DNA of 64,000 nucleotides. Origin: an uncultured virus (IMG/VR IMGVR_UViG_3300044717_000012). Its lineage: Duplodnaviria > Heunggongvirae > Uroviricota > Caudoviricetes. Of this stretch, positions 2,664 through 63,074 are shown one piece after another. Each line of letters opens with the position of its first letter. The stretch's first letter is position 1. The DNA is taken from IMG/VR virus record IMGVR_UViG_3300044717_000012, one strand, 5' to 3'. Both the position numbers and the translations under genes were made by a program. The notes under the pieces are model-generated. The model was not told where the DNA came from, ran no database searches, and saw only the letters and a program-made list of their open reading frames with translations.

Positions 2664-3871
2664 TATGGCCCCAGGAATCCCAGACCCAACCCGTACCCCT
2701 CGGTAGCGGTCGGGATCCGTGTGGTAATGGTGCCGCCTGTTGCTGCGGTCAATGGCATCACAAAAGAATCAATAATGCAGCGGACCGGATCCATACCGGG
2801 ACGGTAGATTACGTCAATAGGATCATTGGTCTCCAGCGCTGGGTTAGGAATCACCGTGAGCGTGTTGGTTTCCGGTAGCATCCGATATCGACGTAGCAGT
2901 GTCTCGCCGGCGAGCTCCACATCGGCATTGGTCTGCAGCAAGGGTGAGGAATAGTACGTGGGTGCCGGGCCGAATGCCGGGTAGGTGGTTTTGTTGAAAG
3001 CCAGCGCTGATGCCGGGTCATTATTCAGGGTGATGATAAAGTCGGTTATGCTGGTCGGGTCACTTCCGTATGCGGTAACTGAATTTGCCACGTCCGTACG
3101 CTTAGTTACCCGCTTGGCTTTGATGATCTGGCCGCCGGCTCCACCGGTCAGCGTGTACACGGGGTAGCTGGCATCAATGGCAATCGAGTAGACCAGCAAC
3201 TCACCCGTATATGTGAATCGCATCATGCTGGCGTTGTATATCTTGATCAGGTCTCGCAGATAGCCATAGGCGTCATCCTCGACAATCTGATCGCCAATGA
3301 TAGTGGTGGTATCCGGGTTGTAACTAGTCCAGCTGATGGGTATGCGCGCGTTGGGATATGCCGCGAAGCCAGACGGCGAGAGCCCGGGGTAAGTAGCTTG
3401 CTGTGGGATTGCTATGCCATTAAACAACCGGTGAAAAACACTACGGTGGCTGTCCGCATTGTTGAGCGGCAAGGGAAATGCCAATTTATTTTGCTGCAGC
3501 TGGGCTATCCGGTCAAGCCCCTGGATACTCACCGGTCCATAGGGTGCCTCATCCTGAGTGATCTGCTCAATGCGGTAATAACCCAGGCCCACTAATTCGC
3601 GATCACCGTTAGCAAATTCCACGCCACGCTCGATGAACAATTCGGTGCCGTAAGGTTTCAGCACGGAGTAGTAGTCACCTGGCACAGTGAGCGAGAGTGT
3701 GGATTTCACATCAGACAATGACTGTGTGGTGATCGAGCCGCTAATAATGGGGATCTCGGTGCCTGTTGGGTTCAGTCCGAACTGCGGTGCTGCATCTACG
3801 AGCACGGCGCGCGATGCTACTTTGTGCGGTCCTTTCACCGCGGCCAGAAAACGACTGGACACACTGCGCAC
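2663..3871 (-). CDS. Minor tail protein (DUF5047-like baseplate hub)
   Basis: MRSVSSRFLAAV..H, GTELFIERGVEF..LGYYRI, YYSSPLL, PNPALE.ND motifs. Confidence 0.8.
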   Translation of the reverse strand: MRSVSSRFLAAVKGPHKVASRAVLVDAAPQFGLNPTGTEIPIISGSITTQSLSDVKSTLSLTVPGDYYSVLKPYGTELFIERGVEFANGDRELVGLGYYRIEQITQDEAPYGPVSIQGLDRIAQLQQNKLAFPLPLNNADSHRSVFHRLFNGIAIPQQATYPGLSPSGFAAYPNARIPISWTSYNPDTTTIIGDQIVEDDAYGYLRDLIKIYNASMMRFTYTGELLVYSIAIDASYPVYTLTGGAGGQIIKAKRVTKRTDVANSVTAYGSDPTSITDFIITLNNDPASALAFNKTTYPAFGPAPTYYSSPLLQTNADVELAGETLLRRYRMLPETNTLTVIPNPALETNDPIDVIYRPGMDPVRCIIDSFVMPLTAATGGTITTRIPTATEGYGLGLGFLGP

Positions 3872-5286
3872 TAGTGGCCTACCAGTGCATCAGCCGGCGT
3901 GCCGGACAGCGCGAGCACAGCCGCCCACGTGGCATTGGCATTGATCACGTCTTGCCACGTAGCATAATTAGTTATCAGAGTTGCCCATGTCACGGTATTA
4001 CCGCCAAGTGAGACATCAGGCATGGTGACCTCAGTGAGCGGTACCGTGTAGTTGTTGTTGTGGCTCAAGTGCGCGGGCCGGGTGTATTTGTAGTTGCCCA
4101 GTGATGCATACATGCTCTTGAGCGCGCAGTTCGGGGGAACTGAGAGCAGCATGATGTTGCCGAGTGAGAGCAACAGATCCAGTGCGGCTGTCTCGGCATC
4201 CCCCGTTGTCCACAGATTGATATTAACGGTGCGCGGTGACGCCATGTCCGTAACCGCGCTCGCGTCACGCTTGCCGATCACGCTGTAGGTGATGGCCCGG
4301 CTACTGCGGTTGAGGTCATCCCAGTCAATCAAGGTCACGGTGCGGTTGAGGTAGGGCGCGGTGGGCACTTTGAGCCAGACCTGCGATTGCACGGGGGTCA
4401 CGGTGGCCGTGGTGCGCAGGACGTAGACCGCACTGCGCAGAGCCACTACCGCGCCGTAGCTGATGGCTGCGCTGCCGCCGGTCACGGTAAATGCCCCGCC
4501 GATGACGGGTGCCGGCGTGGTTTGCACTTGGTAATCCCAGACCTGCCCGGCACCACTGCCCGCTGTACTGGTGACCTCGCCGATCTCGGTAGCTCCGCTG
4601 ATAGTGGCGACGTTAGGCACTGTCCAGCTGGATTGGCGCCAACCGAAATACAAGATCACATCCCAGCTGGACTGGAATGCCGCCACGCCCGGATAGGTGA
4701 TGTTGGCCCCGCTAGGATTGAGCTGATAGGCCGTGGTGGCGGGGATGAGCTCGGTGTTGCGCCAGGCTGCCATCTGGGAGAGCACGTCTGCGCCGGCCGC
4801 ACCGCCCGTGACGGTGACCGTAGGAGCCGACTCAGCCACTGCCGCGCGTTTGCCGAACAGTGCCCAGTTGTCGGCCGCCAGCAGTGCTGTGTAGCCCGTG
4901 GGGGCCACTACGGTGCCCGTGCCGCTGTTGCGGATGCTGGCCAGGATGAGTAACAGGTCGCCCTCTTGCCAGCCCGCCGGTAGGGCCGGGGTCACGCTGG
5001 CGTTGTTGGCAGTCGCTGCGGTGCCGGCGGCAACAAAGCTGGGCGCAGCCGCGGATACCGCGGACACCCGGTAGTAGTTCAGGATCCCCGGGCTGTACTC
5101 GTAGTCAAAGCAGCTGGCCGCGTTGCTCGCTACCGGTACCGCGGAGCTGCCCCGAACTGACCGCCAGTGCACATTGTCGTTTGACCACTCGAATGCCGCC
5201 GTGGTGGCGATAGCCGGTAGGTTGGTGGCAGCGATGAGCACCCGGCCCCGCGAATCATCGTAGGTGGCAGTGACGTTGATAGTCAT
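3871..5286 (-). CDS. Minor tail protein (distal-tail-like, with inserted beta domain)
   Basis: Follows tape measure; DYEY..G..YYRV, WLK.P..PYLN, C-terminal TWATL..YATWQDV repeats. Confidence 0.75.
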   Translation of the reverse strand: MTINVTATYDDSRGRVLIAATNLPAIATTAAFEWSNDNVHWRSVRGSSAVPVASNAASCFDYEYSPGILNYYRVSAVSAAAPSFVAAGTAATANNASVTPALPAGWQEGDLLLILASIRNSGTGTVVAPTGYTALLAADNWALFGKRAAVAESAPTVTVTGGAAGADVLSQMAAWRNTELIPATTAYQLNPSGANITYPGVAAFQSSWDVILYFGWRQSSWTVPNVATISGATEIGEVTSTAGSGAGQVWDYQVQTTPAPVIGGAFTVTGGSAAISYGAVVALRSAVYVLRTTATVTPVQSQVWLKVPTAPYLNRTVTLIDWDDLNRSSRAITYSVIGKRDASAVTDMASPRTVNINLWTTGDAETAALDLLLSLGNIMLLSVPPNCALKSMYASLGNYKYTRPAHLSHNNNYTVPLTEVTMPDVSLGGNTVTWATLITNYATWQDVINANATWAAVLALSGTPADALVGH

Positions 5287-5474
5287 CCGTCATCATCCGG
5301 CCGGTAGACCGCTATTGACTGGGCACAAACAGCAATAACCCGGATGCCAGGCAGTAGTTTCTCTAATTCGCCGGCTACTTCATCAGCATCTCTGCGTGAA
5401 TTCACGTTCGGCACCACTACTATCAGGATGTCACCCGGCTTGGCAACAGCGGCATAAAAATTGATATCAGTCAC
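5283..5474 (-). CDS. Hypothetical protein
   Basis: 63 aa, 4-nt overlaps with both neighbours. Confidence 0.6.
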   Translation of the reverse strand: MTDINFYAAVAKPGDILIVVVPNVNSRRDADEVAGELEKLLPGIRVIAVCAQSIAVYRPDDDG

Positions 5475-6671: not shown

Positions 6672-8297
6672 TTAAGCGCCGTCATCGCTACCGTCATCGG
6701 GTAATTCTGGCGGGTTGTCGAACTGCGTACGCACGCTGCCCATGCCGCCCAAGGGACTAGACCACATATCCTGTGCATTCGGATTTGGCGCGCCCGGTTG
6801 GACCGGATCACCAATACCAGTAGCCTCATCATCTACACTGAATCCCGTAGGCTGGGCACCCATTGATTGCATGGTCTGCGCAACAAAAGCCGCGTCATCA
6901 GGATTATTGTAGACAATCCCGTTATCATCATTACGATATCCAGCGAAATCATCCCCCTGATACGCGCGGTTTAATATCCCCTGCCCGCCTTGGGCCATGT
7001 CTTTGGCTTGCCCCGCGAGTACTGCGCCGTGAGATTGGATACCCGGACCCATATTATCCCAGACACCCTCATTGGGTACTGATTGGCCAGTCCATGCCTC
7101 ACTGTTAAAACCGGTACCAGGATGGTCAAACGAGCCGATGGCATTATCGAGCTTACCCATCACCGCACCGCCCACAGACTGGTTAGTGCTCGCGGGGGTA
7201 GTAGCGTCCTGCCCTGCCACTGGCCCGGGTGCCATCGGACCAGCTGGCGCGAACTGCCCCGAGATATCTGCACCGCCACCGCTGCCGGGGATCATATCGG
7301 CTGGTGTCATTCCCGGCATGGGCATCGGGCCGCCGGATGTAGGTGGCGGTGCTGGAGAACTGCTCATAGTGCCATCACCGGGGGAACCGACCGCACCCCC
7401 GCCACCTGGCATGGGTGGCCCATCGCCGGCTATTGGTGGCGCTGGCGGTAATGGTGGAGGATTGGCTGCCGCCCACGCTGCCACCGCAGAGGTGAACCAC
7501 CCATGGGTGTCGCTGGCGAACTGCGGAGCGCTGCCCCCCTCGGATCCAAACGCCATGATCGATGCCGGCGCGCCTTTGTGCCCGACTGAGGACATGCCAC
7601 CCACCATGATGGCAATGCCGCTCAGTACCGCGGTGCCGGCCACGAGAGCGGCATGCGGGCCTGAGCTCGATGCGGCTGCAGCCACGGCAGAGGTGAGGCT
7701 GTCCGTAGCCCCAGGGACGTTTGCGCTGAGGTAGCCGGCAGCACCCCCGCCACCACCACCTCCCGCGGGTGGTGGCTGGCCCGGGCCGCCAGGTGCACCG
7801 GGGGCAGCCATTGGACCGGCGCCGGGTAGTTGGCCGCCAGCGCCGGGGGGATTGACGACTCCTGACATCCCGGGCGTGGCGTAGGTTGCTGGATTGGGTG
7901 CCGCGGTTTGGTCAGGTGCGTTGCCGCCAGGCATCCCAGGAATACCCACGCCCTGGGTGGCTGTCAGGCCTGACAAGTTCTCGACAGAGCTCTGCATATT
8001 ACTGGCAAGTTGGTTAGATGCCTGCTCGAATTGGCTAACCTGCGTTGTGGGCATATCAGCAGTGATGCTGTCAGCAGTGGAAGCACCCGCTATCTGTGCT
8101 GCGTCATTGAGCATTGCCCCGGGTACCGGTTCCTCACCGGGCCGCACTACCGCACCGGGAACACCCGCGTTGACACCAAACCCGGGCAGGCTAGTGGGAG
8201 CATCAAAATTCTCGGATGCCTCCCCAGTGAGCCCGGCGTCACCCTCCCACGCGTCACCAGTCCGGTCAGCCTCGGTAAAGTTCATCGGATTGGACAC
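6672..8297 (-). CDS. Low-complexity Gly/Pro/Ala/Met-rich 541-aa protein between chaperone and tape measure
   Basis: Long ORF filling the interval; one central hydrophobic stretch. Confidence 0.65.
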   Translation of the reverse strand: MSNPMNFTEADRTGDAWEGDAGLTGEASENFDAPTSLPGFGVNAGVPGAVVRPGEEPVPGAMLNDAAQIAGASTADSITADMPTTQVSQFEQASNQLASNMQSSVENLSGLTATQGVGIPGMPGGNAPDQTAAPNPATYATPGMSGVVNPPGAGGQLPGAGPMAAPGAPGGPGQPPPAGGGGGGGAAGYLSANVPGATDSLTSAVAAAASSSGPHAALVAGTAVLSGIAIMVGGMSSVGHKGAPASIMAFGSEGGSAPQFASDTHGWFTSAVAAWAAANPPPLPPAPPIAGDGPPMPGGGGAVGSPGDGTMSSSPAPPPTSGGPMPMPGMTPADMIPGSGGGADISGQFAPAGPMAPGPVAGQDATTPASTNQSVGGAVMGKLDNAIGSFDHPGTGFNSEAWTGQSVPNEGVWDNMGPGIQSHGAVLAGQAKDMAQGGQGILNRAYQGDDFAGYRNDDNGIVYNNPDDAAFVAQTMQSMGAQPTGFSVDDEATGIGDPVQPGAPNPNAQDMWSSPLGGMGSVRTQFDNPPELPDDGSDDGA

Positions 8298-8308
8298 GTG
8301 TACACCAC

Positions 8309-8520
8309 CTAGCCTGACATCTGTCTGCCTTGCTCATCGAAAGTTGCACCACTACGCGGGTCACGTGACATTTGCTCATCACGTTTGTTGCGCTGTTCTA
8401 GCAATTCCATCGCAGTGGCAATACTGCGCAAATCCTGCTTCCACCACACTTCCGGGCCAATCCCGCTGGCCAATGCCAGAGCAAGAATGGTACGGGTCAG
8501 CGACCCGGCAGCGTAGGGAC
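8309..8520 (-). CDS. Tail assembly chaperone C-terminal (-1 frameshift) extension
   Basis: Open -1 frame PYAAGSLTRTILALALASGIGPEVWWKQDLRSIATAMELLEQ... to TAG 8309-8311; candidate slip site GTCCCTAC. Confidence 0.7.
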
Positions 8521-13075: not shown

Positions 13076-13193
13076 TGTTGTGCTCCCTCGCTATCTTGTG
13101 AGCCTGGCAATGGCTCGATATGCCGTGTACACGGCGCGTGGCCGTGTGATGAGCTGCACTGCGACAAATCGAATGAGCACGCGCCTATAGGCT

Positions 13194-16982: not shown

Positions 16983-17132
16983 CCATTGTTTGTCATCTTC
17001 GGTTAATGCTTGCCTGAGCTCATATGCCGCTATCCGCTCAGCCATGTACTTACACCGCAACCCTTTGCTGCATTTCCGGCATGGGCAACTGATGATGTAC
17101 GGGTTAGCGTACGACTCAATGAAACCATCCAT
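16959..17132 (-). CDS. 57-aa CPCxKC protein, paralog of 31878-32057
   Basis: Hand translation MDGFIESYANPYIISCPCRKCSKGLRCKYMAERIAAYELRQALTEDDKQWLRSYGWS; TGATG-coupled to terL. Confidence 0.7.
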   Translation of the reverse strand: MDGFIESYANPYIISCPCRKCSKGLRCKYMAERIAAYELRQALTEDDKQWLRSYGWS

Positions 17133-18667
17133 CAGTGCACCGACTGCATGAGGTCATACATATTGATGCCGAACACCGCCAGGCCGTGCAGCGCGAGCGT
17201 CAAGGTCATCACAGATGTGATGTTGTACTCGCTGGCCTTGCGTCCCCAGGCCCATGCTCCATCACCGATGTCTCGTTTCTGCAGCGACTTAATTGCCTCA
17301 ATGACCACCACTTGGTTGAGGTGGCGGATCTTGTCAGCGTCCGGGTGGTGAGCTGCGTTGAGGAATTCGCCGCACGCTTGGCCTAGCTCAGTAGCGGTGA
17401 CCTCATAGGGCTCGATGCCGCGCTTTTGCAGCTCGATGAGCAGAGCCCGGGCCGGGCCGGTGGCATCGCACACCCAGGCCACGGGCTGCCAGGTGTCATT
17501 GAGCTCTACGATGCGGTCAACCATCCACTCCGTGCCCTCACGGTGGTCTAGCACGCCGTCTGCGCCCGTGATCTCCGCGTGCGGGATGCCATCGATCCGG
17601 TAGCCGGCCACACCGATGCAGCCGTGCGTGAGGCCCGGGGTCGCATCGAAAGCAAACACGCTGCCTGAGCTGATCTGGCTGGCGAGGTCGGCGTTGCGCG
17701 CCCAGGCAATGAGGTTGATCAGGGGTGCGCCGCGGGGATCCTCGAAGATGCACAGCACCTCACGGGCAAAGATGACCGGATCCATCGAGCGCTGCGCCCG
17801 GGCCAGCGTGGCGAGCGTGAGGTGCCGGCCAGGCACCGGGTAGCCGAGCGCGGGGTTGGATTTGGCCAACTGCCGCGGGTCCGTGGCTACCGCTTGCGGG
17901 TTGGCTCCGTACTCGATCTCATCTACCGACCACTCGTAGTAGGCCACTTCTGGATCACCAGCGATGCCGCGCTCGCGCACCGACCGCAGCGCGCTGGATT
18001 CCAGTTTGCCGCCCATGGACAGATACCAGATCTGCCAGTGTGCTTTCGCAAACATAATGGGCATAAGCGCGCCCACCATTTCGGCGGTCAATGCGAATGC
18101 CTCATCAAAGAAAATGATGTCATAACCGGCCCAACCACGGGCTGCGCTGCCGGTCCGTGCTACGAAATCAATACGGGCGCCCTCTACCGCGCGGCCTTTC
18201 GTCCCGCGGGATGCTGAGGTGATAAGCAGTGGTGCCTTGGGCGGTTTCAGTACTATGGATTGTTCCTCATTGGCCGTGCGGATCTGTTTTACCTCTTTGT
18301 CGAAATCCGGGTAGGATTCGATGAGTAACTGTATCCGCTCGCGCATTTTCCTGCTCGTGGCCATCAGGTGCGCCGTGTACACGAGCTTGGCTTTGCGCAG
18401 GTACAATCCCTCTAGGCTGGCTACTTCCGCGATGGTGCTCTTGCCGTTCTGCCGGCCCACCACAAGGCCGATCTCTGGCGCCGCCCAGGTACGATTCTCG
18501 CTCAGCCCTAGCGCACCGTCCAGCACATCGCATTGCCACTCATCAAGTGGCAGGCCAGCTAACCGACCGAGCTCAACCGCATCAGGCCCCGCTGTCGTCA
18601 CCCACGGGGGGACGCTGCAAATCCGGGGAGTCTGACATCCTTTGATTTCGCTTATCTCTGACAGCAT
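17132..18667 (-). CDS. terL: Terminase large subunit
   Basis: Walker A GRQNGKST, Walker B IFFDEAF, SNPALG, FAREVLC, RNase H-like FAFD. Confidence 0.93.
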   Translation of the reverse strand: MLSEISEIKGCQTPRICSVPPWVTTAGPDAVELGRLAGLPLDEWQCDVLDGALGLSENRTWAAPEIGLVVGRQNGKSTIAEVASLEGLYLRKAKLVYTAHLMATSRKMRERIQLLIESYPDFDKEVKQIRTANEEQSIVLKPPKAPLLITSASRGTKGRAVEGARIDFVARTGSAARGWAGYDIIFFDEAFALTAEMVGALMPIMFAKAHWQIWYLSMGGKLESSALRSVRERGIAGDPEVAYYEWSVDEIEYGANPQAVATDPRQLAKSNPALGYPVPGRHLTLATLARAQRSMDPVIFAREVLCIFEDPRGAPLINLIAWARNADLASQISSGSVFAFDATPGLTHGCIGVAGYRIDGIPHAEITGADGVLDHREGTEWMVDRIVELNDTWQPVAWVCDATGPARALLIELQKRGIEPYEVTATELGQACGEFLNAAHHPDADKIRHLNQVVVIEAIKSLQKRDIGDGAWAWGRKASEYNITSVMTLTLALHGLAVFGINMYDLMQSVH

Positions 18668-21629: not shown

Positions 21630-21731
21630 CTATTCCTTTACCATGGAATTGATAGACTTTAGCATGACTTTACGCACGACGATTGTTCCCCCTATCAATA
21701 CAATGGCGGCTATTGCAATCCACTTTACCAT
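21630..21731 (-). CDS. 33-aa single-TM peptide
   Basis: Hand translation MVKWIAIAAIVLIGGTIVVRKVMLKSINSMVKE, SD GAAAGGGA. Confidence 0.5.
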   Translation of the reverse strand: MVKWIAIAAIVLIGGTIVVRKVMLKSINSMVKE

Positions 21732-21789
21732 TCCCTTTCTCCATTCTTTGCCATTCCGTGCTATTCACCCCGGCTGCATACCGACTGCA

Positions 21790-22115: not shown

Positions 22116-22119
22116 AGCC

Positions 22120-22148: not shown

Positions 22149-22154
22149 TATTGT

Positions 22155-28268: not shown

Positions 28269-28283
28269 CCACCTCACCCCCTT

Positions 28284-45088: not shown

Positions 45089-45421
45089 TTAGTCGCTGGC
45101 CAGCAGTCGAGAGGCTGCGTTTCGGTAGTCCTGCAAATTAAAGTTGTCGATCATCTCCAATACCTTGGCGTTTACCTCTTGATGCATCACAACCTCGTAT
45201 TTGTAATCGAATGAGCCGTCATCCATACAGATGTTGGCCATGTTAGGGAATGCTTCCATAGTGAATTCGATATGCTCGCTTGCGATCCACTCCAGACGTG
45301 ACAATCGATCGGGGGTCCGCGCATCTGGGATTATGAGGTGGCCCATTTCGCTGTGACCATTCGGACGGAAGTATCGGCGCATAGGCACAAAGAGTGTGGT
45401 TTCATTGATGTTTTCGAGCAT
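45089..45421 (-). CDS. Hypothetical protein
   Basis: 110 aa ORF with SD. Confidence 0.6.
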   Translation of the reverse strand: MLENINETTLFVPMRRYFRPNGHSEMGHLIIPDARTPDRLSRLEWIASEHIEFTMEAFPNMANICMDDGSFDYKYEVVMHQEVNAKVLEMIDNFNLQDYRNAASRLLASD

Positions 45422-45605: not shown

Positions 45606-45655
45606 GCCGGGGGATCAACTAGACACCAGAGCGTGTACACGCTGACCCCCCCGGC
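45606..45655. terminator. Stem-loop after SSB-like gene
   Basis: GCCGGGGGATCA...TGACCCCCCCGGC imperfect stem; encloses palindrome AGCGTGTACACGCT. Confidence 0.5.
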
Positions 45656-48918: not shown

Positions 48919-49154
48919 AACGATCTACCCCCTAGTTCCAGATTTGACTGCATAGGACGAAACCAGCCCGTATGCGGGTTACCGAAAGAATAACCAATCT
49001 CATTGAGCACGGTGATCTCAACAATTTGATGATCTTTGTCGTCTGTGAATCCCCCCGGACCAGTCCACATACCTACCCTGATGATTCCGGTTACTAACGT
49101 TAGGAAGATGACACCGATACACACAGCTGTACCAATGGCTGCACGTTTCATCAT
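48915..49154 (-). CDS. Small membrane protein
   Basis: N-terminal TM, coupled. Confidence 0.55.
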   Translation of the reverse strand: MMKRAAIGTAVCIGVIFLTLVTGIIRVGMWTGPGGFTDDKDHQIVEITVLNEIGYSFGNPHTGWFRPMQSNLELGGRSF

Positions 49155-49663
49155 CCCTGCCCTCTAGACCTAGAGCCGACCCAGCGCAATCCCCACTGCG
49201 GTTTCTTATACACGGCAGCCGCGTAAGCCGCGGGGAACTGGGATTTAAGCACATCGCTGTTGACATAGGTTTTTTCCTCAGCCGCGAGTGCGAGGCCATC
49301 GGACCGGCCTAGCCGGTATAGCTGCACCTTTGTTGCTCTGGGATCGAGGTGGTGCAGGGTGGCCTTGATGGCGTCTTTGAGCTCACCTACGCGAGTCTCC
49401 AGCGCATCGAGTTGCGGCTTGAGCTGGTCGTATTCGTCATACAACTGCTCTAGCCGGTCGCCGGGGGTAGCGATGAACTGCGTCACCGGCTTGCGATCTT
49501 TCTCAGCCTTGCGTAGCTGGGATAGTGCTGCGATTACGGCGGGATCTTCCGGGTCGGCATCCGGGGGTATAGCCGGCGGCCGGGAAAGCACCGGAACACC
49601 GAGCTCACGCAGAATCTGGTCAACCTCGGCTTGGTTGGGCATGCTGGATCCGGGCGTGGCCAT
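49151..49663 (-). CDS. Coiled-coil phage protein
   Basis: SD AGGAG; helical core then beta C-term. Confidence 0.65.
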   Translation of the reverse strand: MATPGSSMPNQAEVDQILRELGVPVLSRPPAIPPDADPEDPAVIAALSQLRKAEKDRKPVTQFIATPGDRLEQLYDEYDQLKPQLDALETRVGELKDAIKATLHHLDPRATKVQLYRLGRSDGLALAAEEKTYVNSDVLKSQFPAAYAAAVYKKPQWGLRWVGSRSRGQG

Positions 49664-50055
49664 ATACCACTCTCCTGTAGTTCTGTCAGCGGTGGCGAGT
49701 CCGCGGGTGTGCGTGGCGCACAGAGGGCTTAGCGTACCCCTTGCGAGCTGTCCCGGGCAAGGGACCACGTTATGTACCGCACGAACGGGCGACGTGTCAA
49801 GTCCTCGCAGGTAAGCCGTAGGTTAGCGGTCAGTAAGTTGATCCACATGAGTAGGTGTACACGCCCTTGCTCTGCGTGCCGTTGACGCGCTACTGGCCAG
49901 TAGAGGTAAGCTGTGCGTGCTGGCATGCGGGTGGCCGCTTGTGTAGCTGTCAGATCCTCGTGGCGAGTCTGACAAATGGTGGTCCCCCTGTCACCCGGCG
50001 CGGCTGGAGCCCAGGTCTAGCAAGCGCGTGGCAGGGGGATCGCCTCACCTCACAG

Positions 50056-50656: not shown

Positions 50657-51250
50657 TTAACCCCCGGAAGGATAGATCAGGCCCTCAACACCCATCACCC
50701 AGGCTAGCGTACGGGTGAGCTCGCCCGGGTCATAGCAAGCCTCTGCGCCCAGCTCAGGCAGCACGATGCGGTCAGAGGGCATGATGTAGGGCGCCCGCTG
50801 CGCTGCGTCCATCCATGTGCGCCAGTCCGCGTAAGTGGTCAGGGTGTCTTCTATCGACCATGGGCAGCTGCGCGACGCTGCCCAGGACCAACCTAGACGG
50901 CGTGAGGCTACTCCGTACCATGTCCACGTGATCGAGCACTCGTCAGGGACGTAGGGCAGATCCGTCCCGTCTTCCCGCGGCAGGACTACCGCCCGCATCA
51001 CAAACTCACCCTGGCGAGCTCGCCTAGCCGGCGGTGGCCACGGCTGCGCCCGGGAGTCTGGCGGATGCAGCTCACGCGTTGTGGCCCACTCGGACGGGTC
51101 GGTAGTCAGCACTTTGCGGCGCAATGCCTCGATAATCTCATCCGCGCGCTGGCGACTGAAACCCAGCGCAGTACCAATCTGTTTAGCGCTCTGATTGATC
51201 CGGTAGAGGTTTAGTACCGCTAGCTGCGTTGGTGTGAGGTTTGCCAGCAC
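50657..51250 (-). CDS. HTH (sigma region 4/LuxR-like) domain protein
   Basis: LTPTQLAVL.LY...SAKQIG.ALGFSRQ. Confidence 0.6.
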   Translation of the reverse strand: MLANLTPTQLAVLNLYRINQSAKQIGTALGFSRQRADEIIEALRRKVLTTDPSEWATTRELHPPDSRAQPWPPPARRARQGEFVMRAVVLPREDGTDLPYVPDECSITWTWYGVASRRLGWSWAASRSCPWSIEDTLTTYADWRTWMDAAQRAPYIMPSDRIVLPELGAEACYDPGELTRTLAWVMGVEGLIYPSGG

Positions 51251-51431
51251 AGCAGTTAGACTACCAGCACTGCATGCCAGACAACGGCTAGGGAGATCAC
51301 CCGCGTGACCGCCACACGAGCTCGTACGAGAGCCAAACCACCTAGCCAACGCCGTCCTCGCCGCGCACCGGTCGCCAGGCGCGGATGGCAGCAACGCAGA
51401 CTTGATATCTGGACTGCCGTGGCTGAATTCT

Positions 51432-52489: not shown

Positions 52490-53062
52490 TCACTTCACCC
52501 AATCTGCAATGAGCTGGTGCTGTGCTTGATCCAGCGTGAGCGCACCAGAGCATACCTTACTGTGTAGCGCATCCTCCTCGTGATCTTTGACGTGCGCGCC
52601 GGCCGGCCCATCCCATAATTCTGGGTAGAAGTTCGCCGGCAGCCCGGTCGGGCCTTTGGTGTAGCCGGGATCGCCATCGAGCTGCAGCGTGCCGATGTGG
52701 TCACCCTCGACAGAGCTCAGAGGTTGGCCGCTCATCCCGTAGGCCGCCATCACCTGACGTTTCCATTGGTTCGTGACTGTTGTGGGCGGCCGGCGTGACG
52801 CTATCCAACGCGGCTCTACCCCCTTGGGCTGGCAGAGCGTGTGTTTGTACAGCGGCGCGTCTGCGGTCACCTCAGGGCTATGTGCGAACAGCCCGGGCGA
52901 ACAGTGGGCATCCGCTCTGCCGTTCACTTCGTGGCACGCGGCTGCAGCCGGGATTGCTACCGGGGACATGACGGATTGCTGCAGCTGCCCAGATGCAGGA
53001 TGTGGTGTACACGCGGTGGTCAGCACGACACAAGCAACAACCGTGGCGAGTTGCAATTTCAT
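52490..53062 (-). CDS. Lipoprotein with HNH-like nuclease fold
   Basis: Lipobox LTTAC; EGDH...L.LDG.P...N.YPE...KD..E..L...VCSG.LTL..AQ...DW. Confidence 0.65.
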   Translation of the reverse strand: MKLQLATVVACVVLTTACTPHPASGQLQQSVMSPVAIPAAAACHEVNGRADAHCSPGLFAHSPEVTADAPLYKHTLCQPKGVEPRWIASRRPPTTVTNQWKRQVMAAYGMSGQPLSSVEGDHIGTLQLDGDPGYTKGPTGLPANFYPELWDGPAGAHVKDHEEDALHSKVCSGALTLDQAQHQLIADWVK

Positions 53063-57125: not shown

Positions 57126-57527
57126 TCATCGCTGCGACTCCTCACATATCTCTGCGTCTTGTGCCACCACGAGCTCTATAGCCTCGCGCACAGTCAAGAG
57201 CTTAGGACCGAAACCGAATATGTAATCTGACTCCGCGACTAGAGCTTCAGCTTTGTCTAAAAGGGCTTTTATCTCAGCTTCCTGATCGAAGTAGTATTGA
57301 TCGGGGTAGGACAGATGATGTGGGTACTCATTTGTGCAGTAGGTTAGGCCGGTAGGATCAACGCGTAGATTAGATTTTCCATCCCATAGCCGCCACGACT
57401 CAGCGAGCCAGGCATTGACTCGGGTGGTGTCTCCGTACTCCATTGCTTCCCTTGCGCGATGGCGCGCATAGCCGGCTGCAGTCGTGTCATACATATCGGT
57501 CAGCTTTCTCCCTCGGTTGTGTGCCAC
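57126..57527 (-). CDS. Hypothetical protein
   Basis: Operon position; start uncertain. Confidence 0.55.
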   Translation of the reverse strand: MAHNRGRKLTDMYDTTAAGYARHRAREAMEYGDTTRVNAWLAESWRLWDGKSNLRVDPTGLTYCTNEYPHHLSYPDQYYFDQEAEIKALLDKAEALVAESDYIFGFGPKLLTVREAIELVVAQDAEICEESQR

Positions 57528-57742
57528 ACAATGACATCATCAGTAATCTTGACGCAATGCCGAGCCCAACGGTTAATCAGTGCTTCCTCCTCTGTTAGTG
57601 GGATGTCATGGGCGATGACATCCAAATCATCCGGCAATGTGACTTCGTCTGGTGCTAGCTCATCCTCTTTGATAGCAGCTGTGATGTAATCCTCGACCTC
57701 GACCTCATATGTGATGGTGTGAGTAATCTGCATGCGAGTCAT
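57500..57742 (-). CDS. Acidic hypothetical protein
   Basis: ATGA-coupled start at 57742. Confidence 0.55.
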   Translation of the reverse strand: MTRMQITHTITYEVEVEDYITAAIKEDELAPDEVTLPDDLDVIAHDIPLTEEEALINRWARHCVKITDDVIVWHTTEGES

Positions 57743-57897
57743 AGCCGGTGACCCATACGGAAACCGAAAGGACCGGGGAATGAGATGTAACAACGGTGCG
57801 CGAATGATCGGTGATTCCGACTGCGGGCGAATCGGTGTCCGGCAAACGCAAAGTGGATGATGGCGTAGATGATGCAGAGGACAATGATTGTGTGCAT
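57739..57897 (-). CDS. Small membrane protein
   Basis: SD GGGAG; N-terminal TM then S.PGPFG. Confidence 0.55.
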   Translation of the reverse strand: MHTIIVLCIIYAIIHFAFAGHRFARSRNHRSFAHRCYISFPGPFGFRMGHRL

Positions 57898-57902
57898 GGT
57901 AG

Positions 57903-59084
57903 TTATCTCCCTTGTACTGAGTGCCATAGCTTCTGCAGGAGGTGAGGTCGTTTTTCCTCTCGCACGTTTCGCGGGTTGATGTCAATGAGAGTGGTTAGGT
58001 CGAATTTCCAAGTTGCACCGACCGTATCGAGTATTAGACAATTGGTTTTTGCCTTTCCGGTAGTGGGATCAATCCACGGTTGTTGTGTTGCCGGATCAAT
58101 GCAAGGTCGTAAACCCCTCCCAATCATCTGGGTGAATAGTCCTGCTGATTGTGTGGAACGTGCGAGGAGAATGCAACTTACCTGTGGGCAATCAAATCCC
58201 TCGGTAGCTACATTGACGTTAACCATTACTCTGATCTCGCCGCCGGCCAGTTGCTTGTAGATGAGTTTGCGATCCTCGTAAGGTGTCGCCCCGATGACTA
58301 AAGCAACTGGAACGTGGAGGCTCTCAAATGCGGCAGTGAGGTAATGAGCTTCCTCAATACTCTGCGCGTAAGCAATCGTGATCCGATTCTGTGCCTTGCG
58401 CACCCATCCCTCTGCAACCCGTTGGGCATCGCGCTGGAGTAGTTCCTCTGCGGAAAGAGAGCGGAAGCTGAATCGATCCCAGAATCGATTGAGACTAATG
58501 TGTCTTACAACGGGCTGCACCAATAACTTCTGGCGGAATGCCCAGTCATAGGAGATCACATCAGCAACCGACTGGAACAGACCATCGAAAGATTGTCCGT
58601 CAGTGCGGCTGAGAGTGGCGGTGACGCCGAGCAGTCTGGTGCGCCGGCCGTCAAAGCAGCCAGCCCATTGCGCGATATCCAGATACGAGTCAGTCATGCT
58701 GTGCTGGCACTCATCAATGATGACCAGCGTGGGCTGCCAGTTGAGCGCGGCTCGACGTTTCGGCCGGCACAATGTCTGGACGGAGGCCACCACGATTGAT
58801 TGGTCGGTGTCGCTGCGGTTTCCCTGGATCCGTCCGACTGGCAGTGGTGAGTAGTGGCTGATGCGCGTGATTATTTGATCCAGTAGTTCTACCCGGTGGG
58901 CGAGAAACAGCACGCGTCCACCATTGTCCACCTCATCCACGCATAGCTTTGCGGTCGTGTCGTTTTTGCCGGCACCCGTGGGATGAACAATGGCGGTCCG
59001 AACAATCCCGCCGGCCCACTCGGTTTGGATGTGGGTGATGGCATTCTGTTGGTATGATCGCAGCTGGCGAGTGCTGGCGGTCAT
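57903..59084 (-). CDS. SF2 helicase (ResIII/Irc3-like), copy 2, variant motifs
   Basis: LRSYQ, TGAGKN, DECQ, TAT, TEGFD.P, QMIGRGLR; colinear with 24693-25925. Confidence 0.88.
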   Translation of the reverse strand: MTASTRQLRSYQQNAITHIQTEWAGGIVRTAIVHPTGAGKNDTTAKLCVDEVDNGGRVLFLAHRVELLDQIITRISHYSPLPVGRIQGNRSDTDQSIVVASVQTLCRPKRRAALNWQPTLVIIDECQHSMTDSYLDIAQWAGCFDGRRTRLLGVTATLSRTDGQSFDGLFQSVADVISYDWAFRQKLLVQPVVRHISLNRFWDRFSFRSLSAEELLQRDAQRVAEGWVRKAQNRITIAYAQSIEEAHYLTAAFESLHVPVALVIGATPYEDRKLIYKQLAGGEIRVMVNVNVATEGFDCPQVSCILLARSTQSAGLFTQMIGRGLRPCIDPATQQPWIDPTTGKAKTNCLILDTVGATWKFDLTTLIDINPRNVREEKRPHLLQKLWHSVQGR

Positions 59085-59090
59085 GACAGA

Positions 59091-59327
59091 TCAGCTCTCC
59101 TCTGAGATGGCAATCGAGGTGGAATCGATCCATACCCGGCCGGTGCCCGCCATCGGCTCAACCTCATAGCGGAGGGTGCCATAGCTGACCTTGGCATCTA
59201 CGATCCGCACGAACACGGAGCACTCACCGCGAAAGAGCACGGCGCCGATTTTGTTGATGTTTTTGGTCATCTCAGCGGCGGTCATTGTCTCGGATCCTTC
59301 CCAAGCTGGCTGGTCATTGCCTGACAT
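59091..59327 (-). CDS. Hypothetical protein
   Basis: V.I.DAK.SYG..RY.V.P..G.G..W; behind promoter. Confidence 0.7.
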   Translation of the reverse strand: MSGNDQPAWEGSETMTAAEMTKNINKIGAVLFRGECSVFVRIVDAKVSYGTLRYEVEPMAGTGRVWIDSTSIAISEES

Positions 59328-59332
59328 GGATA

Positions 59333-59361
59333 ACGATAGCGGTTCGTGTACACCACGTCAA
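59333..59361 (-). promoter_or_regulatory. Sigma70 promoter TTGACG-17-TATCGT with GTGTACAC in spacer
   Basis: 5 nt before ATG 59327. Confidence 0.7.
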
Positions 59362-59385
59362 GACTACTTGCGAGGTGATTATCGG

Positions 59386-59649
59386 TCAGGTAGTCTTGGT
59401 TGTCTTGCGAGCTCGCGGGGCAGCGGTCGCGGTGCGGCGAGCTGGCTTGCGGACTGGCTGGTAACCGAGCAGATACCACATCGCGCAGATCAGCTGCAGG
59501 ATCATCGCGAGCAACGTCATGTACCAATTCTGAGTCCACACAGAGAACGGGACTGCGATGCTGGCAACCATGTTGGCCTCGAACCACATTTGGGGCATCG
59601 CGCGCCGCGTGGTGATCGATTTGTGGGCGGCTTTGATGATCTTGTGCAT
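59386..59649 (-). CDS. Two-TM membrane protein
   Basis: SD GGGAG; basic tail. Confidence 0.6.
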   Translation of the reverse strand: MHKIIKAAHKSITTRRAMPQMWFEANMVASIAVPFSVWTQNWYMTLLAMILQLICAMWYLLGYQPVRKPARRTATAAPRARKTTKTT

Positions 59650-59752
59650 GTCTGTCGCTCCCGCTCGAACCGCTGGCGGCTACCGCATAGACGTTGGCGG
59701 TGATCTGACCCCCCTTACCTGCCAGGGGCACTACACCCTTCCAACACCTCAA

Positions 59753-59782
59753 ACGATACCCTTGCCAACCACACCATGTCAA
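59753..59782 (-). promoter_or_regulatory. Sigma70 promoter TTGACATGGT...TATCGT (18 spacer)
   Basis: Same family as 27362, 28301, 63781. Confidence 0.65.
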
Positions 59783-59801
59783 GGGGTATGATGAGGTAAT
59801 G

Positions 59802-60149
59802 TCAGACATCATCGCCTCGCATGTTCTCAGGCAGGTTGCGCAGCGCGCGAGCTCCACCCAAGATCGAGATCAGCCGGGCCTCCCAGCGCATCTTCTTGCC
59901 CGTGCCTCCGCAGCTGCCGATGCCGAGCAGAGCGCCGGGGCAGAACTCGCCGAAGTGTTCACCCTTCCCATCCCAGCTACGTCCCTTGTCACAGTGCTTG
60001 CAGGGCACAATCGGGCGCCGGGTTACATCCACCCACCACACCACCACGGCGGCCGGCACAAGCAGTACGACGTGTGCCACGAACGCCATTGGCCAGGTCA
60101 GGGACAGCGCCGCAATGATCACCATCGCAAACATCATCAAGATTGCCAT
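59802..60149 (-). CDS. Membrane protein with DnaJ-like CxxC.G..C.GTG zinc motif
   Basis: Two TMs then RP..PCKHC.KG...C...CGGTGK.MR; type often next to FtsK in actinomycete elements. Confidence 0.7.
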   Translation of the reverse strand: MAILMMFAMVIIAALSLTWPMAFVAHVVLLVPAAVVVWWVDVTRRPIVPCKHCDKGRSWDGKGEHFGEFCPGALLGIGSCGGTGKKMRWEARLISILGGARALRNLPENMRGDDV

Positions 60150-60202
60150 GCTCGGTCACCTCACCCCTTGCGGGTCCGCTGTCTGCAAGGGCCAGTGTGC
60201 CC

Positions 60203-60323
60203 CACTACAAAGATCAACTGTGTAGCGCCCCAGGCCACTACAATCATGATCAAATGCTACAGGGGTGCTACACATGATCAAGCTCTGACCTGCGATGTAG
60301 CATCTGCCCACTACGCTGTAGTG
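60203..60323. repeat. CTACA/TGTAG repeat cluster downstream of FtsK-like gene
   Basis: Eight copies in both orientations (60203, 60221, 60236, 60256, 60267, 60296, 60309, 60317) plus ATGATCAA twice. Confidence 0.65.
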
Positions 60324-60328
60324 CCCCC

Positions 60329-62368
60329 TCATGGCGAGCTCTCCCGTGCTTTGATAGCCGCGGCGACATCCTCGCGGTGATAGCACTGCAGCGGTTTCTT
60401 ATTGACCTGACAGCGACCGCTGCGAGCGCTAATAACAGCACCTTTGCTGTTACCCGGTACTTCTCTACGCAGTGCGTCAGCTAGTGAGCCTTGCGTCCAC
60501 TTATCCCCTTGCTCATTGGCGTATTTCACTACCAACGCGCTGGATAGGATATTGGCGCCGTAATGGCGTAATGCCATTTCAACCGCAGTAAGAGCCGGCG
60601 GCAATTCCTCAGCATCTATGTATGCTGCCGGTGCGGTATGAGACTCGATCGGAAGCATAGGCCGATTACCTTGCTGCGCCCATTCGGTTTCCCGGCGCAT
60701 TGCCCGCGCCTTGACCTTAAACGGCCAGTAGCTGCGCACGTAGTCGGAACCGAAACCGGGGCCATCAACAATTGCCATGCCTGCGTCATTGATATTGTGC
60801 TCATCTGCCGGCTGCAGTAGGTGTGGTGCATAACCCTGATCACGCTTATCTTTGCCGAGCAAATCTACGGTATCCCGTTCTGTACACGGACCGATAATCT
60901 TGACGTTGGCCTGCTTGTAGATAACCGATGATCCCCAGTCCTCGTTACCGGATGCCTGGCAGGCTAGCACCAGCGACACCCCCAACCCGGATCCTGTACG
61001 CATGATGGTTTCAACCATATCTAGCAGATTTGGCTTGCCGTCTTGGTGGACTTTGGTTCCGTCATACTTTGCGATCCACGGGAATTCATCGAGGACGCAT
61101 ACGATAGCCGGCCCCAGTGTGGGATTCCATTTGTCAACATCATTGCTTGGATCATCATCTGAGTTGATATCTTTGAGCATCTGATCACGCTGCTGAATCT
61201 GCCCGATCAACCATTCCAGCAACTCAGTCAGTTGGTTTACATTCTCGGCTTTTTTATAAATCACCGAACGCCAGGCATCAAAAATCGAAGATTTGATCAA
61301 TGCCCCTGCGCAGGTAACCACATCACTGGTAGCCGACAATCTGTCAATGACAGTAGACAGAGTTACTGACTTACCGCCACGAGTGCGGCTGACTAACAGA
61401 ACATTGCGCATTACCAGCACGAGCTCATAAGGGCAGCTGGGATCGATAGACAGCCCCAGATCGAGCGGATCCCAACCAGACACCGTGCCTGCCGGGATCC
61501 ACGGAGCTTCTGGCACATTCGCCAGCGGGTTGCCCGTAGAGACCACCAGTGTTTGCAGCGCTGCGTTTTCGGGATTGACCACTACCCTGATGGCGCGGTC
61601 GGGTGCGTAGATGCGTTTTTCCAGAGCGCGCAACAGCTCAGGCTTGATCGCTATTGCGGTGACAAGATCGATGTAGTAGGCGTGACGCTGCGGAGCAAAC
61701 CGCACCGTGGCTACGGTGATCGCGTTGTCTAGCCCTTCCTCCTCTAGGAAGATCTTTACCTCGCGCTTGACTGTGGAGGTGGGCATGCCATTTTTCAGCG
61801 GTACCGGGGTGTGCGGAGGTGCCTCAGATTTGGGTCGCCCGTGACGGCCGATCGCATCGAGCACCGCGCCCAGCCCGATGCCGGCCAGCTCTCCGTAGGA
61901 CGGGTAGTAGATCCCCAACCACAAGCCGAGAATGGACACCGCCCCCAGGGCTGCCCAGAGCACGGCACCACGCCGGGACCGCACATTGACGTGACGTTCA
62001 GCACCCCGGTAGGCGTGCGTGGTCCCTACGGCCACCGCGGCGGCTCTTTCGTGGTTGATCGCAATCGACCACGCGTAAAGCCCATCGATGACCCGCAGCC
62101 CGCCGGACCACACGTAGCGAATCTCGCCCAGCGCACCGAAAATCCCCCGGCCAGCCCAGTAGATGATCGCCTTAGGGATCCTGTACCAGGGATCCACTGC
62201 ATATTGGATGCTCGCCCAGAGCCGGTGCTTGTCGAGGATCAGCGTGTGTTCCTCAGCCTTGCGCAACCACCCAGGGATGTAGGGCTCCGCGGCGCCGGAC
62301 TGCCGCGGCGCGTGCATCGGCACGAGCTCACGGGATGACTCGGATGAGTGATCATTGCGGAGCGTCAT
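60329..62368 (-). CDS. FtsK/SpoIIIE-family (TraB-like) DNA translocase
   Basis: N-terminal TMs; Walker A variant SRTRGGKS, VLDE, R.G..LGV.L..A.Q; C-terminal small domain. Confidence 0.8.
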   Translation of the reverse strand: MTLRNDHSSESSRELVPMHAPRQSGAAEPYIPGWLRKAEEHTLILDKHRLWASIQYAVDPWYRIPKAIIYWAGRGIFGALGEIRYVWSGGLRVIDGLYAWSIAINHERAAAVAVGTTHAYRGAERHVNVRSRRGAVLWAALGAVSILGLWLGIYYPSYGELAGIGLGAVLDAIGRHGRPKSEAPPHTPVPLKNGMPTSTVKREVKIFLEEEGLDNAITVATVRFAPQRHAYYIDLVTAIAIKPELLRALEKRIYAPDRAIRVVVNPENAALQTLVVSTGNPLANVPEAPWIPAGTVSGWDPLDLGLSIDPSCPYELVLVMRNVLLVSRTRGGKSVTLSTVIDRLSATSDVVTCAGALIKSSIFDAWRSVIYKKAENVNQLTELLEWLIGQIQQRDQMLKDINSDDDPSNDVDKWNPTLGPAIVCVLDEFPWIAKYDGTKVHQDGKPNLLDMVETIMRTGSGLGVSLVLACQASGNEDWGSSVIYKQANVKIIGPCTERDTVDLLGKDKRDQGYAPHLLQPADEHNINDAGMAIVDGPGFGSDYVRSYWPFKVKARAMRRETEWAQQGNRPMLPIESHTAPAAYIDAEELPPALTAVEMALRHYGANILSSALVVKYANEQGDKWTQGSLADALRREVPGNSKGAVISARSGRCQVNKKPLQCYHREDVAAAIKARESSP

Positions 62369-62464
62369 GGCATATCCGGTTGGGTCGGGGGCACGTGTCT
62401 CGGTAGTCTATAGCCATGATTCACACCTGTGAATCCAGACCGTAAATCACGAGCGGAGACCGAC

Positions 62465-62899
62465 ATGCCCCCAACGCCACGGCGACCGGCCAGCCCGGTG
62501 CCCTACCGATCCACCACGCCGGCTGTTGAGCCACCTGCGCCGGCACCTGCCAATGACGACACCGCGCCGGCTAACACCATCGAGGCTGACCAGATATACG
62601 CAGAGGGCATCACCGCGGCAGACGCGCTGGCCACCGTGCTGGGTGACCGGGTGACCGGCGTGCATCAAACCGACTGCAAGGCAGCTATGGCGGTTATCGA
62701 TGAGTGGCTGGCCAACATTCCGCTCTGGCGGTCGCTGATCTTGCACCTGATGTTCAATGACTACGCGCACCGGGGAGATCAACCAGAGAGCGACCGGTGG
62801 ATGTGGGTAGCCCATCAGCTGCGCAAACCCAAGGCCACCGTGCACAAGTACGCGCACGCAGTGGAGTCCTGCAGTGCCATCGGCAGCGAGGGCCAGTAA
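62465..62899 (+). CDS. Hypothetical protein with possible C-terminal HTH
   Basis: SD GGAG; WVAHQL.KPKATVHKYA; divergent from FtsK-like gene. Confidence 0.55.
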   Translation: MPPTPRRPASPVPYRSTTPAVEPPAPAPANDDTAPANTIEADQIYAEGITAADALATVLGDRVTGVHQTDCKAAMAVIDEWLANIPLWRSLILHLMFNDYAHRGDQPESDRWMWVAHQLRKPKATVHKYAHAVESCSAIGSEGQ

Positions 62900-63074
62900 T
62901 AGGGGCAGGCCTCGCGCTCACTGTGGGGGGAAGTGCGAGGCCTGCCAGGCAGACGGTACCAACCCAATACCGTGCGCCGGTCTGCCGGGGACAGCGGAGA
63001 TGTCAGGCAACGTATCCACGCGGGCAGACGCAGCTGAGTCTAGTCAGCCCAGCGCAGCCGTGTACACAAGCAAT

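Follow-up and report, generated by a model that had tools for sequence, protein, structure and literature searches.

A strict palindromic word dispersed through the genome of an uncultured tailed phage and conserved among its relatives

The 64,000-nucleotide stretch of the virus record IMGVR_UViG_3300044717_000012 (the window, or W; G1–G5 and G16 denote related IMG/VR virus records) is most of an uncultured tailed phage. It carries, dispersed along its length, one palindromic word, the 8-mer GTGTACAC. An initial annotation had picked out 16 copies of this word by eye, nine of them extended to the 10-mer CGTGTACACG; all of these are exact matches, and the largest gap between neighbours is 6,341 bp. 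The word is real and strict; it is conserved, is imposed on coding sequence, belongs to particular lineages and keeps a constant density. Our preferred explanation, to which we give a probability of only about 40%, is that cGTGTACACg forms a docking lattice for a phage-encoded protein that binds as a symmetric dimer. The copies themselves are observed; we infer that a protein reads the word, that this protein is phage-encoded and dimeric, and how it would act after binding.

The number of copies is far above expectation. In 100 dinucleotide-preserving shuffles of W the 8-mer occurred 0.98 times on average and at most 4 times (0/100 reached 16), and the 10-mer 0.07 times on average and at most once, against 9 copies observed. 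Markov models of orders 0, 1, 2 and 3 predict 0.88, 1.06, 1.12 and 0.74 copies of the 8-mer. An order-6 model gives 12.96, a figure that is uninformative because its 7-mers occur almost only inside the motif (18 each). GTAC alone is not enriched in W (224 observed, 185–261 expected). GTGTACAC is the most significantly over-represented 8-mer in W, and it is also the top 8-mer in G1 and G2.

The word is also strict. A symmetrised logo of 52 half-sites has 2 bits at the 8 core positions, about 1 bit at the flanking base (C in 40/52 half-sites) and zero beyond, the information ending at 10 bp. Variants with one mismatch are not enriched, either in W (12 found, 18–26 expected) or in G1 (21 found, 25–35 expected). 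Because the logo is confined to 10 bp and the one-mismatch variants are unenriched, recognition of the word is compact, symmetric and all-or-none.

A capsid search of IMG/VR found 366 relatives, from which 80 loci were kept. Among these, enrichment of GTGTACAC is confined to two groups, the closest group (which includes G1) and G2. G1 is a complete record of 82,450 bp, about 90% identical to W, with 20 copies; G2 is a 27.6-kb fragment with a capsid identity of 65% and 6 copies where 0.3 are expected. The word is absent from G3 (71 kb) and G5 (79 kb), and G4 (88 kb) has 3 copies. The copies in W, with the open reading frames (ORFs) and genes around them, are as follows.

Site 1, 3153–3160: in a tail gene (2663–3871, minus strand), frame 0, encoding Val-Tyr-Thr; relatives have V-A-T or K-A-T, and the Tyr codon is specific to the motif lineage.
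Site 2, 8298–8305: in the short gap between ORF 8309–8473 and the tape-measure-like ORF 6672–8297, abutting the first GTG of the latter.
Site 3, 13125–13132: within the 14-bp palindrome 13122–13135, in the gap that separates the protease gene from the major capsid gene, 50 nt before the capsid start.
Site 4, 18375–18382: in the terminase large subunit gene (17132–18667, minus strand), encoding Val-Tyr-Thr; exact ortholog of the G2 site at 14701.
Sites 5 and 6, 22012–22019 and 22037–22044: a doublet, 25 bp from start to start, the second copy being within the 14-bp palindrome 22034–22047; the doublet is kept in G1.
Site 7, 26547–26554: in ORF 26403–26837 (minus strand), frame 1, encoding Arg-Val-His.
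Site 8, 29170–29177: near the 3' end of ORF 29133–30149 (minus strand), encoding Val-Tyr-Thr; weak relatives have V-V-P or T-T-T.
Site 9, 33708–33715: in the PrimPol-helicase-PolA gene, encoding Val-Tyr-Thr; kept at 73% local identity to G1.
Site 10, 34932–34939: in the PrimPol-helicase-PolA gene, encoding Val-Tyr-Thr; G4 has Ile-Tyr-Ala.
Site 11, 39360–39367: intergenic, 33 nt downstream of gene 39400–40245; kept at 81% local identity.
Site 12, 45633–45640: within the 14-bp palindrome 45630–45643, intergenic, between 45679–46920 and 45089–45421.
Site 13, 49855–49862: intergenic, 87 nt upstream of gene 49151–49768 (minus strand).
Site 14, 53005–53012: in the signal peptide/lipobox (Ala-Cys-Thr-Pro) of a predicted lipoprotein gene (52490–53062, minus strand).
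Site 15, 59346–59353: intergenic, in the spacer of the promoter-like TTGACG-17-TATCGT on the minus strand.
Site 16, 63060–63067: intergenic, 7 nt upstream of the plus-strand promoter-like TTGACA-18-CATAGT, before a phage Lsr2 gene.

Reading the flanks confirmed that the three longer palindromes noticed at the outset are 14 bp each, and the copies that had been placed at regulatory spots do lie there: that at 59346 in a promoter-like spacer, that at 63060 beside a -35 element, that at 8298 at a start codon and that at 13125 before the capsid gene. Only 2 of the 16 copies touch promoter-like matches, at different relative positions, and such matches are not above shuffles in W overall.

Conservation in related phages had been suggested as a check on the word, and it is pronounced. 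All 16 copies are intact in G1, where 52.8% of aligned 8-mers are intact overall (P = 3.6e-5), and they are intact even where local identity is 73–85%. In eight further fragments the word was kept, flanking bases included, in 16/16 site-by-fragment comparisons, and site 3 is intact in each of the five fragments that cover it. None of the 40 differences listed, out of 1,913 between contigs, falls in a lattice site, to which we give no weight.

The distribution of the copies over coding and non-coding DNA was judged on a gene map of W built from the third-codon-position periodicity of W–G1 substitutions. On this map 9 of the 16 copies lie between genes, where coding sequence makes up 83% of W (P ~ 4e-4 by our own arithmetic). 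Gene calls from the G+C content of third codon positions (GC3) were unreliable, placing 4 sites of W between genes against 9 by substitution periodicity, and the statement on intergenic copies is limited to W. The seven genic copies encode Val-Tyr-Thr (five), Arg-Val-His (one) and Ala-Cys-Thr-Pro (one), and use all three frames.

The frequency of Val-Tyr-Thr among the genic copies (5/7) is what would favour regarding the count as a by-product of composition, of Val-Tyr-Thr codon-pair bias (raised in the initial annotation as what might undo its reading) or of recent duplication. The rest of the data leave this explanation with next to no chance of being right. Shuffles and Markov models of orders 0–3 predict about one copy, and 9/16 copies are non-coding. 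Codon-pair bias fails because Val-Tyr-Thr is always spelled with the word and because an amino-acid change accompanies the word at three sites. The tripeptide occurs only five times in the W proteome, and 5/5 are spelled GTGTACAC, where codon usage predicts 0.31 for each. In the terminase, Val-Tyr-Thr is found family-wide, and the GTGTACAC spelling occurs in W, G1 and G2 only (G4 has GTC TAC ACC and G5 GTT TAC ACC). At 3153, 29170 and 34932 the relatives carry other amino acids, the word having been imposed on the protein. The copies are not duplications or a mobile element, because their flanks share nothing beyond 10 bp, and alternating 8-mers are not enriched as a class. Purifying selection that acts on the DNA itself, and not on composition or codons, is thus a well-supported reading of the sequence comparisons.

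In W the copies are spaced more evenly than random (coefficient of variation (CV) 0.42, P = 0.0004; maximum gap of 6,341 bp, P = 0.0001; 20,000 simulations). Density is nearly the same in each lineage, at one copy per 4.0 kb in W, 4.1 kb in G1, 4.6 kb in G2 and 3.8 kb in G4 (for the G4 word described below), and most copy positions differ among W, G2 and G4 despite this constancy. Of the six copies in G2, one is an exact ortholog (that in the terminase gene), one is in the intergenic region equivalent to 21630–22150 of W, and four are elsewhere. The W region is the following.

21630–22150: A+T-rich non-coding region of about 500 bp, flanked by the leftward structural/late genes on one side and small rightward ORFs on the other, and containing repeats both direct and inverted.

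It is likely to be a control or origin region. Its repeats include, for example, a 37-nt repeat at 21892 and 21953, and contigs of three other soil runs have 337 extra letters at 21732–21741.

The G4 lineage has a sister word. The top palindrome of G4 is GTGCGCAC, with 23 copies where about 5 are expected, and its extended form CGTGCGCACG has 16 copies where 0.25 are expected. This word (cGTGCGCACg) is as strict as that of W and has the same flank preference (C in 35/46 half-sites); the two words differ solely in the central two bases, TA in W and CG in G4. G4 has nearly the whole early module in common with W (33–67% protein identity), whereas G3 and G5 have only structural genes in common with W and carry neither word. 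In the lipoprotein gene the same codons read GCG TGT ACA CC in W and GCG TGC GCA CC (Ala-Cys-Ala-Pro) in G4; the residue after the lipobox Cys, Thr in W and Ala in G4, follows the TA-to-CG difference between the words. The G4 copy at 17107 is upstream of the ortholog of gene 49151, as is site 13 in W, in a place where the nucleotide alignment is poor. G2 is as distant from W as G4 is. With 16/16 copies conserved, codons and amino acids bent to fit, strict recognition, three lineages and a two-base variant, the suggestion in the initial annotation of a genome-wide recognition code is well supported at the level of the DNA. An explanation of the Z-DNA type was tried and rejected: although each word is a perfect alternation of pyrimidine and purine, 8-mers of the alternating type show no enrichment overall (282 against 280.5).

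The closest published case is a repeat of Cluster O mycobacteriophages, and the closest understood system is KorB with its operator OB. The Cluster O account describes a dyad-symmetric repeat in 34 invariant copies, one third of which are genic, gives their function as unknown, and predicts a dimeric binder with a role other than transcription initiation (PMC4351075). As described there, the 17-bp Cluster O repeat (TGTTCGGNNNCCGAACA, 7-3-7) resembles the word of W in being an invariant palindrome of an actinophage not obviously temperate, dispersed, partly genic and mostly off promoters. In contrast, the word of W is a contiguous 8–10 bp without a spacer, is about half as dense (1 per 4 kb), is evenly spread rather than crowded at one end, and has a two-base variant in a sister lineage. 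The repeats differ too in sequence and architecture. The capsid search with W hit 61 Mycobacterium phage records, the matches listed were Omega, Optimus, Bipper and similar phages and not Corndog, and no Cluster O phage was among them. Cluster O was the only comparable report found in the literature on actinophage palindromes, and a full-text search for the 8-mer gave nothing on phages among the matches listed.

KorB operators of RK2 are described at distances of 4–10 bp to more than 1 kb from promoters (PMC11790492). As in W, one palindromic operator is spread over a replicon of about 60 kb at variable distances from promoters, and bound KorB acts at a distance. The 16-bp OB, however, has as its reader a CTP clamp of the ParB family that works with a partner, KorA (PMC11790492), and no ParB-type domain was found in W. 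ParB and KorB sites, of 13–16 bp or more, are read by a helix-turn-helix pair, whereas the information in the word of W is confined to 10 bp, which is too short.

Like the stoperators of Cluster A phages, the word is short, present in many copies, and found in and between genes. A stoperator, however, is an asymmetric and somewhat degenerate site that is oriented with transcription and to which the immunity repressor of a temperate phage binds. The word of W, by contrast, is its own reverse complement and strict. Repressor and integrase families were not found among the scanned ORFs of W (83, 15 and 21 against Pfam, 71 and 34 against PHROGs, 47 against NCBIfam) or in the rest of G1 (42 ORFs of at least 70 amino acids (aa) from the 19.5 kb outside W). 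Together with the palindromic form of the word and its contact with promoter-like matches at only 2/16 copies, this speaks against the stoperator-like repressor sites that had first been suggested.

If the word is a docking lattice, its reader would be encoded in the early/replication module, which is common only to the lattice-bearing relatives. Once bound, the protein would act on the whole chromosome from a genome-wide lattice of copies, and the outcome might be like that of the dispersed KorB operators of RK2, namely global organisation or long-range control, together with discrimination of phage from host DNA. Such a lattice would be unlike a set of classical promoter operators.

Several points weigh against this proposal. 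None of the scanned ORFs matched a ParB/KorB-type, ribbon-helix-helix or other clearly dimeric DNA-binding family, and no ParBc or related match was found in W or in the remainder of G1, remote folds not being covered by these scans; this counts against the partition or compaction sites first considered. In a contiguous 10-bp palindrome the half-site centres are about 5 bp apart, which leaves too little room for a pair of classical helix-turn-helix domains side by side on the same face of the DNA, and the helix-turn-helix candidates fit poorly because of this short distance. Sharp-edged, all-or-none recognition is commoner in enzymes than in regulators. The phyletic argument compares four motif-bearing with two motif-free records, and since the whole early module co-varies it singles out no one gene. 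The fairly even spacing that was initially described holds for W, but it is weaker on circular G1 (one 12.5-kb gap, CV 0.63, P = 0.02) and absent in G4, where spacing is indistinguishable from random (CV 0.92, P = 0.49). Finally, a host-encoded reader may also be compatible with the data.

The candidate readers encoded in W, and the neighbour of one of them, are as follows.

60329–62368, minus strand: FtsK/HerA-superfamily ATPase, 679 aa, present in W, G1 and G4, absent from G3 and G5.
32936–38476, minus strand: replicase, 1,846 aa, with PrimPol, D5-like helicase (DUF5906) and family A DNA polymerase, in W, G1 and G4 only.
30840–31031, minus strand: HTH_17/excisionase-type protein, 63 aa.
30988–31746, minus strand: Cys-rich protein, 252 aa, adjoining the HTH_17 gene.
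50660–51298, minus strand: 213-aa protein with an N-terminal sigma-region-4-like helix-turn-helix.
62429–62899, plus strand: 156-aa protein, its C-terminal part like a helix-turn-helix of the sigma-region-4 type by eye, with no family match.

The initial annotation had named four helix-turn-helix proteins as possible binders. That at 30840 is confirmed as HTH_17/excisionase-type, those at 50657 and 62429 have sigma-region-4-like helix-turn-helix segments, and that at 26162 is weakly PadR-like and absent from the G4 lineage. The HTH_17 protein, its 252-aa neighbour and a 115-aa protein are found in W, G1, G2 and G4 but not in G3 or G5. G2 is only a fragment, however, and the W/G1/G4 pattern is shared by about 25 early genes. 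An Atlas search with the 252-aa protein yielded leads to DUF7341/DUF7340 only. For the 213-aa protein an AlphaFold model (predicted local distance difference test (pLDDT) score of 75.8) matched sigma region 4 over about 57 residues only, and a Foldseek search with this model gave no match at E ≤ 0.001, leaving its C-terminal domain without an assignment. The putative recognition helix of its family is SRQRADE or SRQRTDE in eight of the nine sequences taken from the database and the window, and TRQRADE in the ninth; in G4 it reads TRQRGQE, a difference from W that is suggestive only. Sequence searches of the PDB with three uncharacterised proteins returned nothing usable.

The word could instead be the recognition sequence of a phage FtsK/TraB-like pump, whose C-terminal domain would read the 8-mer and load on phage and not host DNA, possibly so as to move the genome from one compartment to another in an actinomycete host that forms a mycelium or spores. 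Exactly 8 bp are strictly required, and this core is dispersed through genes; the KOPS and SRS words are also 8-mers. TraB recognises 8-bp TRS repeats, and clt-like sequences are described on chromosomes (PMC4170104). The product of 60329–62368 is, to judge by its sequence, a divergent FtsK/HerA-superfamily ATPase. By eye it has two hydrophobic N-terminal segments, a Walker A motif (TRGGKS) and a Walker B motif (VLDEFP), followed by a conserved extra C-terminal segment of about 100 aa. It matches PHROG FtsK/SpoIIIE families (E 7e-7 and 1.9e-6), 5/21 family members match Pfam PF01580 FtsK_SpoIIIE (best E 2.2e-6), and its matches in cultured phages are 86 Streptomyces phages only (19–25% identity), annotated as carrying an FtsK-like translocase. 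Its presence in W, G1 and G4 and absence from G3 and G5 also suit a reader, a pattern that about 25 other early genes have as well. The W protein itself is below significance in Pfam (E 0.13), the family profile matches FtsK structures at E 0.21–0.43 only, and the C-terminal fold was not obtained, an AlphaFold model of residues 290–679 having a mean pLDDT of 32. Scattered exact 8-mers, some of them in genes, and a putative pump homolog encoded in W are points of likeness to the FtsK-family words as described for TraB (PMC4170104). Those of FtsK, SpoIIIE and TraB, however, are asymmetric and act by orientation, as polar words or clustered direct repeats, whereas GTGTACAC is a perfect palindrome with a single doublet in W. 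We consider a pump reading of the word unlikely.

Repeats of other kinds were seen in three related or comparable genomes. G16, which has an FtsK-like gene (34% identity), carries a 24-bp tandem array with TCACCGTG at both contig ends (9 copies). This asymmetric 8-mer has 13 dispersed copies on one strand and 4 on the other. Nine of the dispersed plus-strand copies fall in called ORFs; 7 of the nine are antisense to their gene, with 6/7 in a single frame, so that a coding bias is possible. In bases 1–50000 of the Streptomyces phage Coruscant, which encodes an FtsK-like translocase, a ParB N-terminal domain protein and Lsr2, the top word is a G+C-rich repeat of the TGGCGCCGGGCGCC type (13 copies, in a genome of 48.5% G+C). 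G5 has another word, AAAGCATGCTT, in 10 copies within 5 kb (57335–62487), four of them at 23–26 bp spacing, which looks like a local operator or early-promoter array and not a lattice.

A second enzyme that might read the word is the replicase. Each copy could be a loading or priming site of the PrimPol-helicase-PolA protein, with 5'-C-GTG on each strand and two helicase rings or two primases back to back, the outcome being many evenly spaced origins or lagging-strand priming sites. The protein combines PrimPol (PF09250, E 1.2e-15, residues 9–189), D5-like helicase and family A polymerase in one chain. The pRN1 PrimPol primase, of the same enzyme family, makes primers only on templates with the triplet GTG, starting 5' of it (PMC2965215), and either strand of the word likewise offers a GTG preceded by a favoured base. 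A replicase would account for strict, enzyme-like recognition, for the word on both strands, for the even spacing and capped maximum gap in W and for the indifference to coding context. The doublet, moreover, is in the only large A+T-rich non-coding region, and the gene is confined to the W, G1 and G4 lineages. Against these points, primase words are normally 3–5 nt and need no palindrome; for pRN1 it is a triplet, not an 8–10-mer (PMC2965215), with no palindrome required and no spacing along a genome. Most copies are in G+C-rich coding DNA without an A+T-rich unwinding element, and after C the flank prefers G as often as T, which does not suit a primase that starts with a purine. What joins helicase to polymerase is a disordered linker and not an extra DNA-binding domain (about 350 aa, Pro/Ser/Thr-rich, poorly conserved, present in G1 and shorter in G4), no family match was found for residues 200–550, and no helix-bundle domain is demonstrated. 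We know of no phage with some 20 identical origins, which also counts against the replicase as reader, and the idea is doubtful overall. More doubtful still is its fullest form, in which every copy would serve a single-chain replisome as a priming site or as a small origin that fires in both directions, the 82-kb genome would be copied from about 20 evenly spaced starts, and the central bases (TA or CG) would be a code that keeps each replicase on its own genome.

All-or-none, sharp-edged recognition of an 8-bp palindrome of the type II enzyme kind would also suit a sequence-specific phage enzyme, either a nicking or cutting nuclease (compare the fixed single-strand interruptions of some phages) or a base modifier. 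W encodes an HNH nuclease at 27888–28307, and the DUF4406 protein and three MazG-like pyrophosphatases at 39400–41272 could accompany modified DNA. The HNH gene, however, is also present in the motif-free G3 and G5. Methyltransferase and restriction enzyme families were absent from the scanned ORFs of W and from the remainder of G1, and no nickase family was found among the scanned ORFs. Nothing accounts for selection raising the number of an enzyme's targets and spacing them, and the word, far from being avoided, is enriched about 16-fold. Nicking at a symmetric site would, in addition, yield double-strand breaks. An enzyme target is improbable on this evidence, and the modification marks proposed initially find no support, with neither a methyltransferase nor a restriction enzyme found in these scans and with the enrichment of an enzyme target left unexplained.

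The word might, lastly, be read by a host protein (a nucleoid, segregation or transcription factor), each phage lineage being adapted to the factor of its own host. No phage-encoded reader could be named, and lytic Bacillus phages are known to carry host Spo0J sites. G2, as distant from W as G4 and yet with the word of W, fits shared versus different hosts as well as it does a phage-encoded reader. The word tracks the early module of the phage, however, and not the structural module, and the two words, differing in the central two bases only and identical in architecture, look like a specificity change in one evolving protein. A host reader accordingly has a low probability in our estimation, and we retain the phage-encoded dimer as the preferred, if tentative, explanation.

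In W the portal, protease, major capsid, terminase, tape-measure and tail proteins are encoded on the minus strand. A long early/replication block encodes the PrimPol/D5-like helicase/family A polymerase fusion, a SNF2 helicase, two ResIII helicases, a RecB-like exonuclease, three MazG-like pyrophosphatases, a DUF4406 protein, the FtsK-like ATPase and an Lsr2 homolog. This Lsr2 homolog, and capsid and polymerase matches to actinophages only, point to an actinobacterium as host. The Lsr2 homolog (63174–63692, plus strand) has both its dimerisation and DNA-binding domains, and the opposite-strand ORF 63003–63767 is probably spurious, judged by substitution periodicity. The two ResIII/DEAD-type helicase genes (24693–25925, plus strand, and 57903–59084, minus strand) are paralogs on opposite strands, and G3 and G4 have one region each that matches both. 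The cluster at 39400–41272 (minus strand) joins DUF4406, which is nucleoside 2-deoxyribosyltransferase-like, to MazG/PRA-PH-like pyrophosphatases, and G1 encodes a class V aminotransferase outside W (L081:17079–18428); these genes may indicate unusual nucleotide metabolism or DNA modification. Scans of W for tRNA genes and Rfam families found nothing.

Contigs that contain W sequence come from soil metagenomes. In contigs of three other soil runs 228–231 bp of the segment 16361–16593 are skipped and 9–12 other letters stand in their place, a strain indel polymorphism. A near-identity search of GenBank phages with the first 25 kb of W gave no match. Further members of the clade were sought in viral contigs (with the SNF2 helicase, 252-aa, sigma-region-4-like and FtsK-like proteins as queries) and in metagenome contigs (by SNF2 alignment), and only G1, G2, G4, close fragments and the distant G16 were found. 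The SNF2 gene occurs in 0/10 other large capsid-related records, and neither of two scans of reference genomes, made with two phage proteins, gave a match. The protein database contains about 20 FtsK-like and 8 sigma-region-4-like homologs, on contigs of up to 88 kb.

Dispersed identical palindromes in phages have been reported before, in Cluster O, without a function, and W offers a clean case in which the word is 8–10 bp and all-or-none. Selection on it is strong enough to alter proteins, and three lineages keep about one copy per 4 kb even though the copies themselves shift position. In a sister lineage that has the same gene module, only the two central bases are changed. As this lattice occurs without a detected ParB-type protein, such lattices may have more than one molecular basis, and if the reader should be the replicase or the FtsK-like pump, a virus would here be marking its own DNA in a new way.

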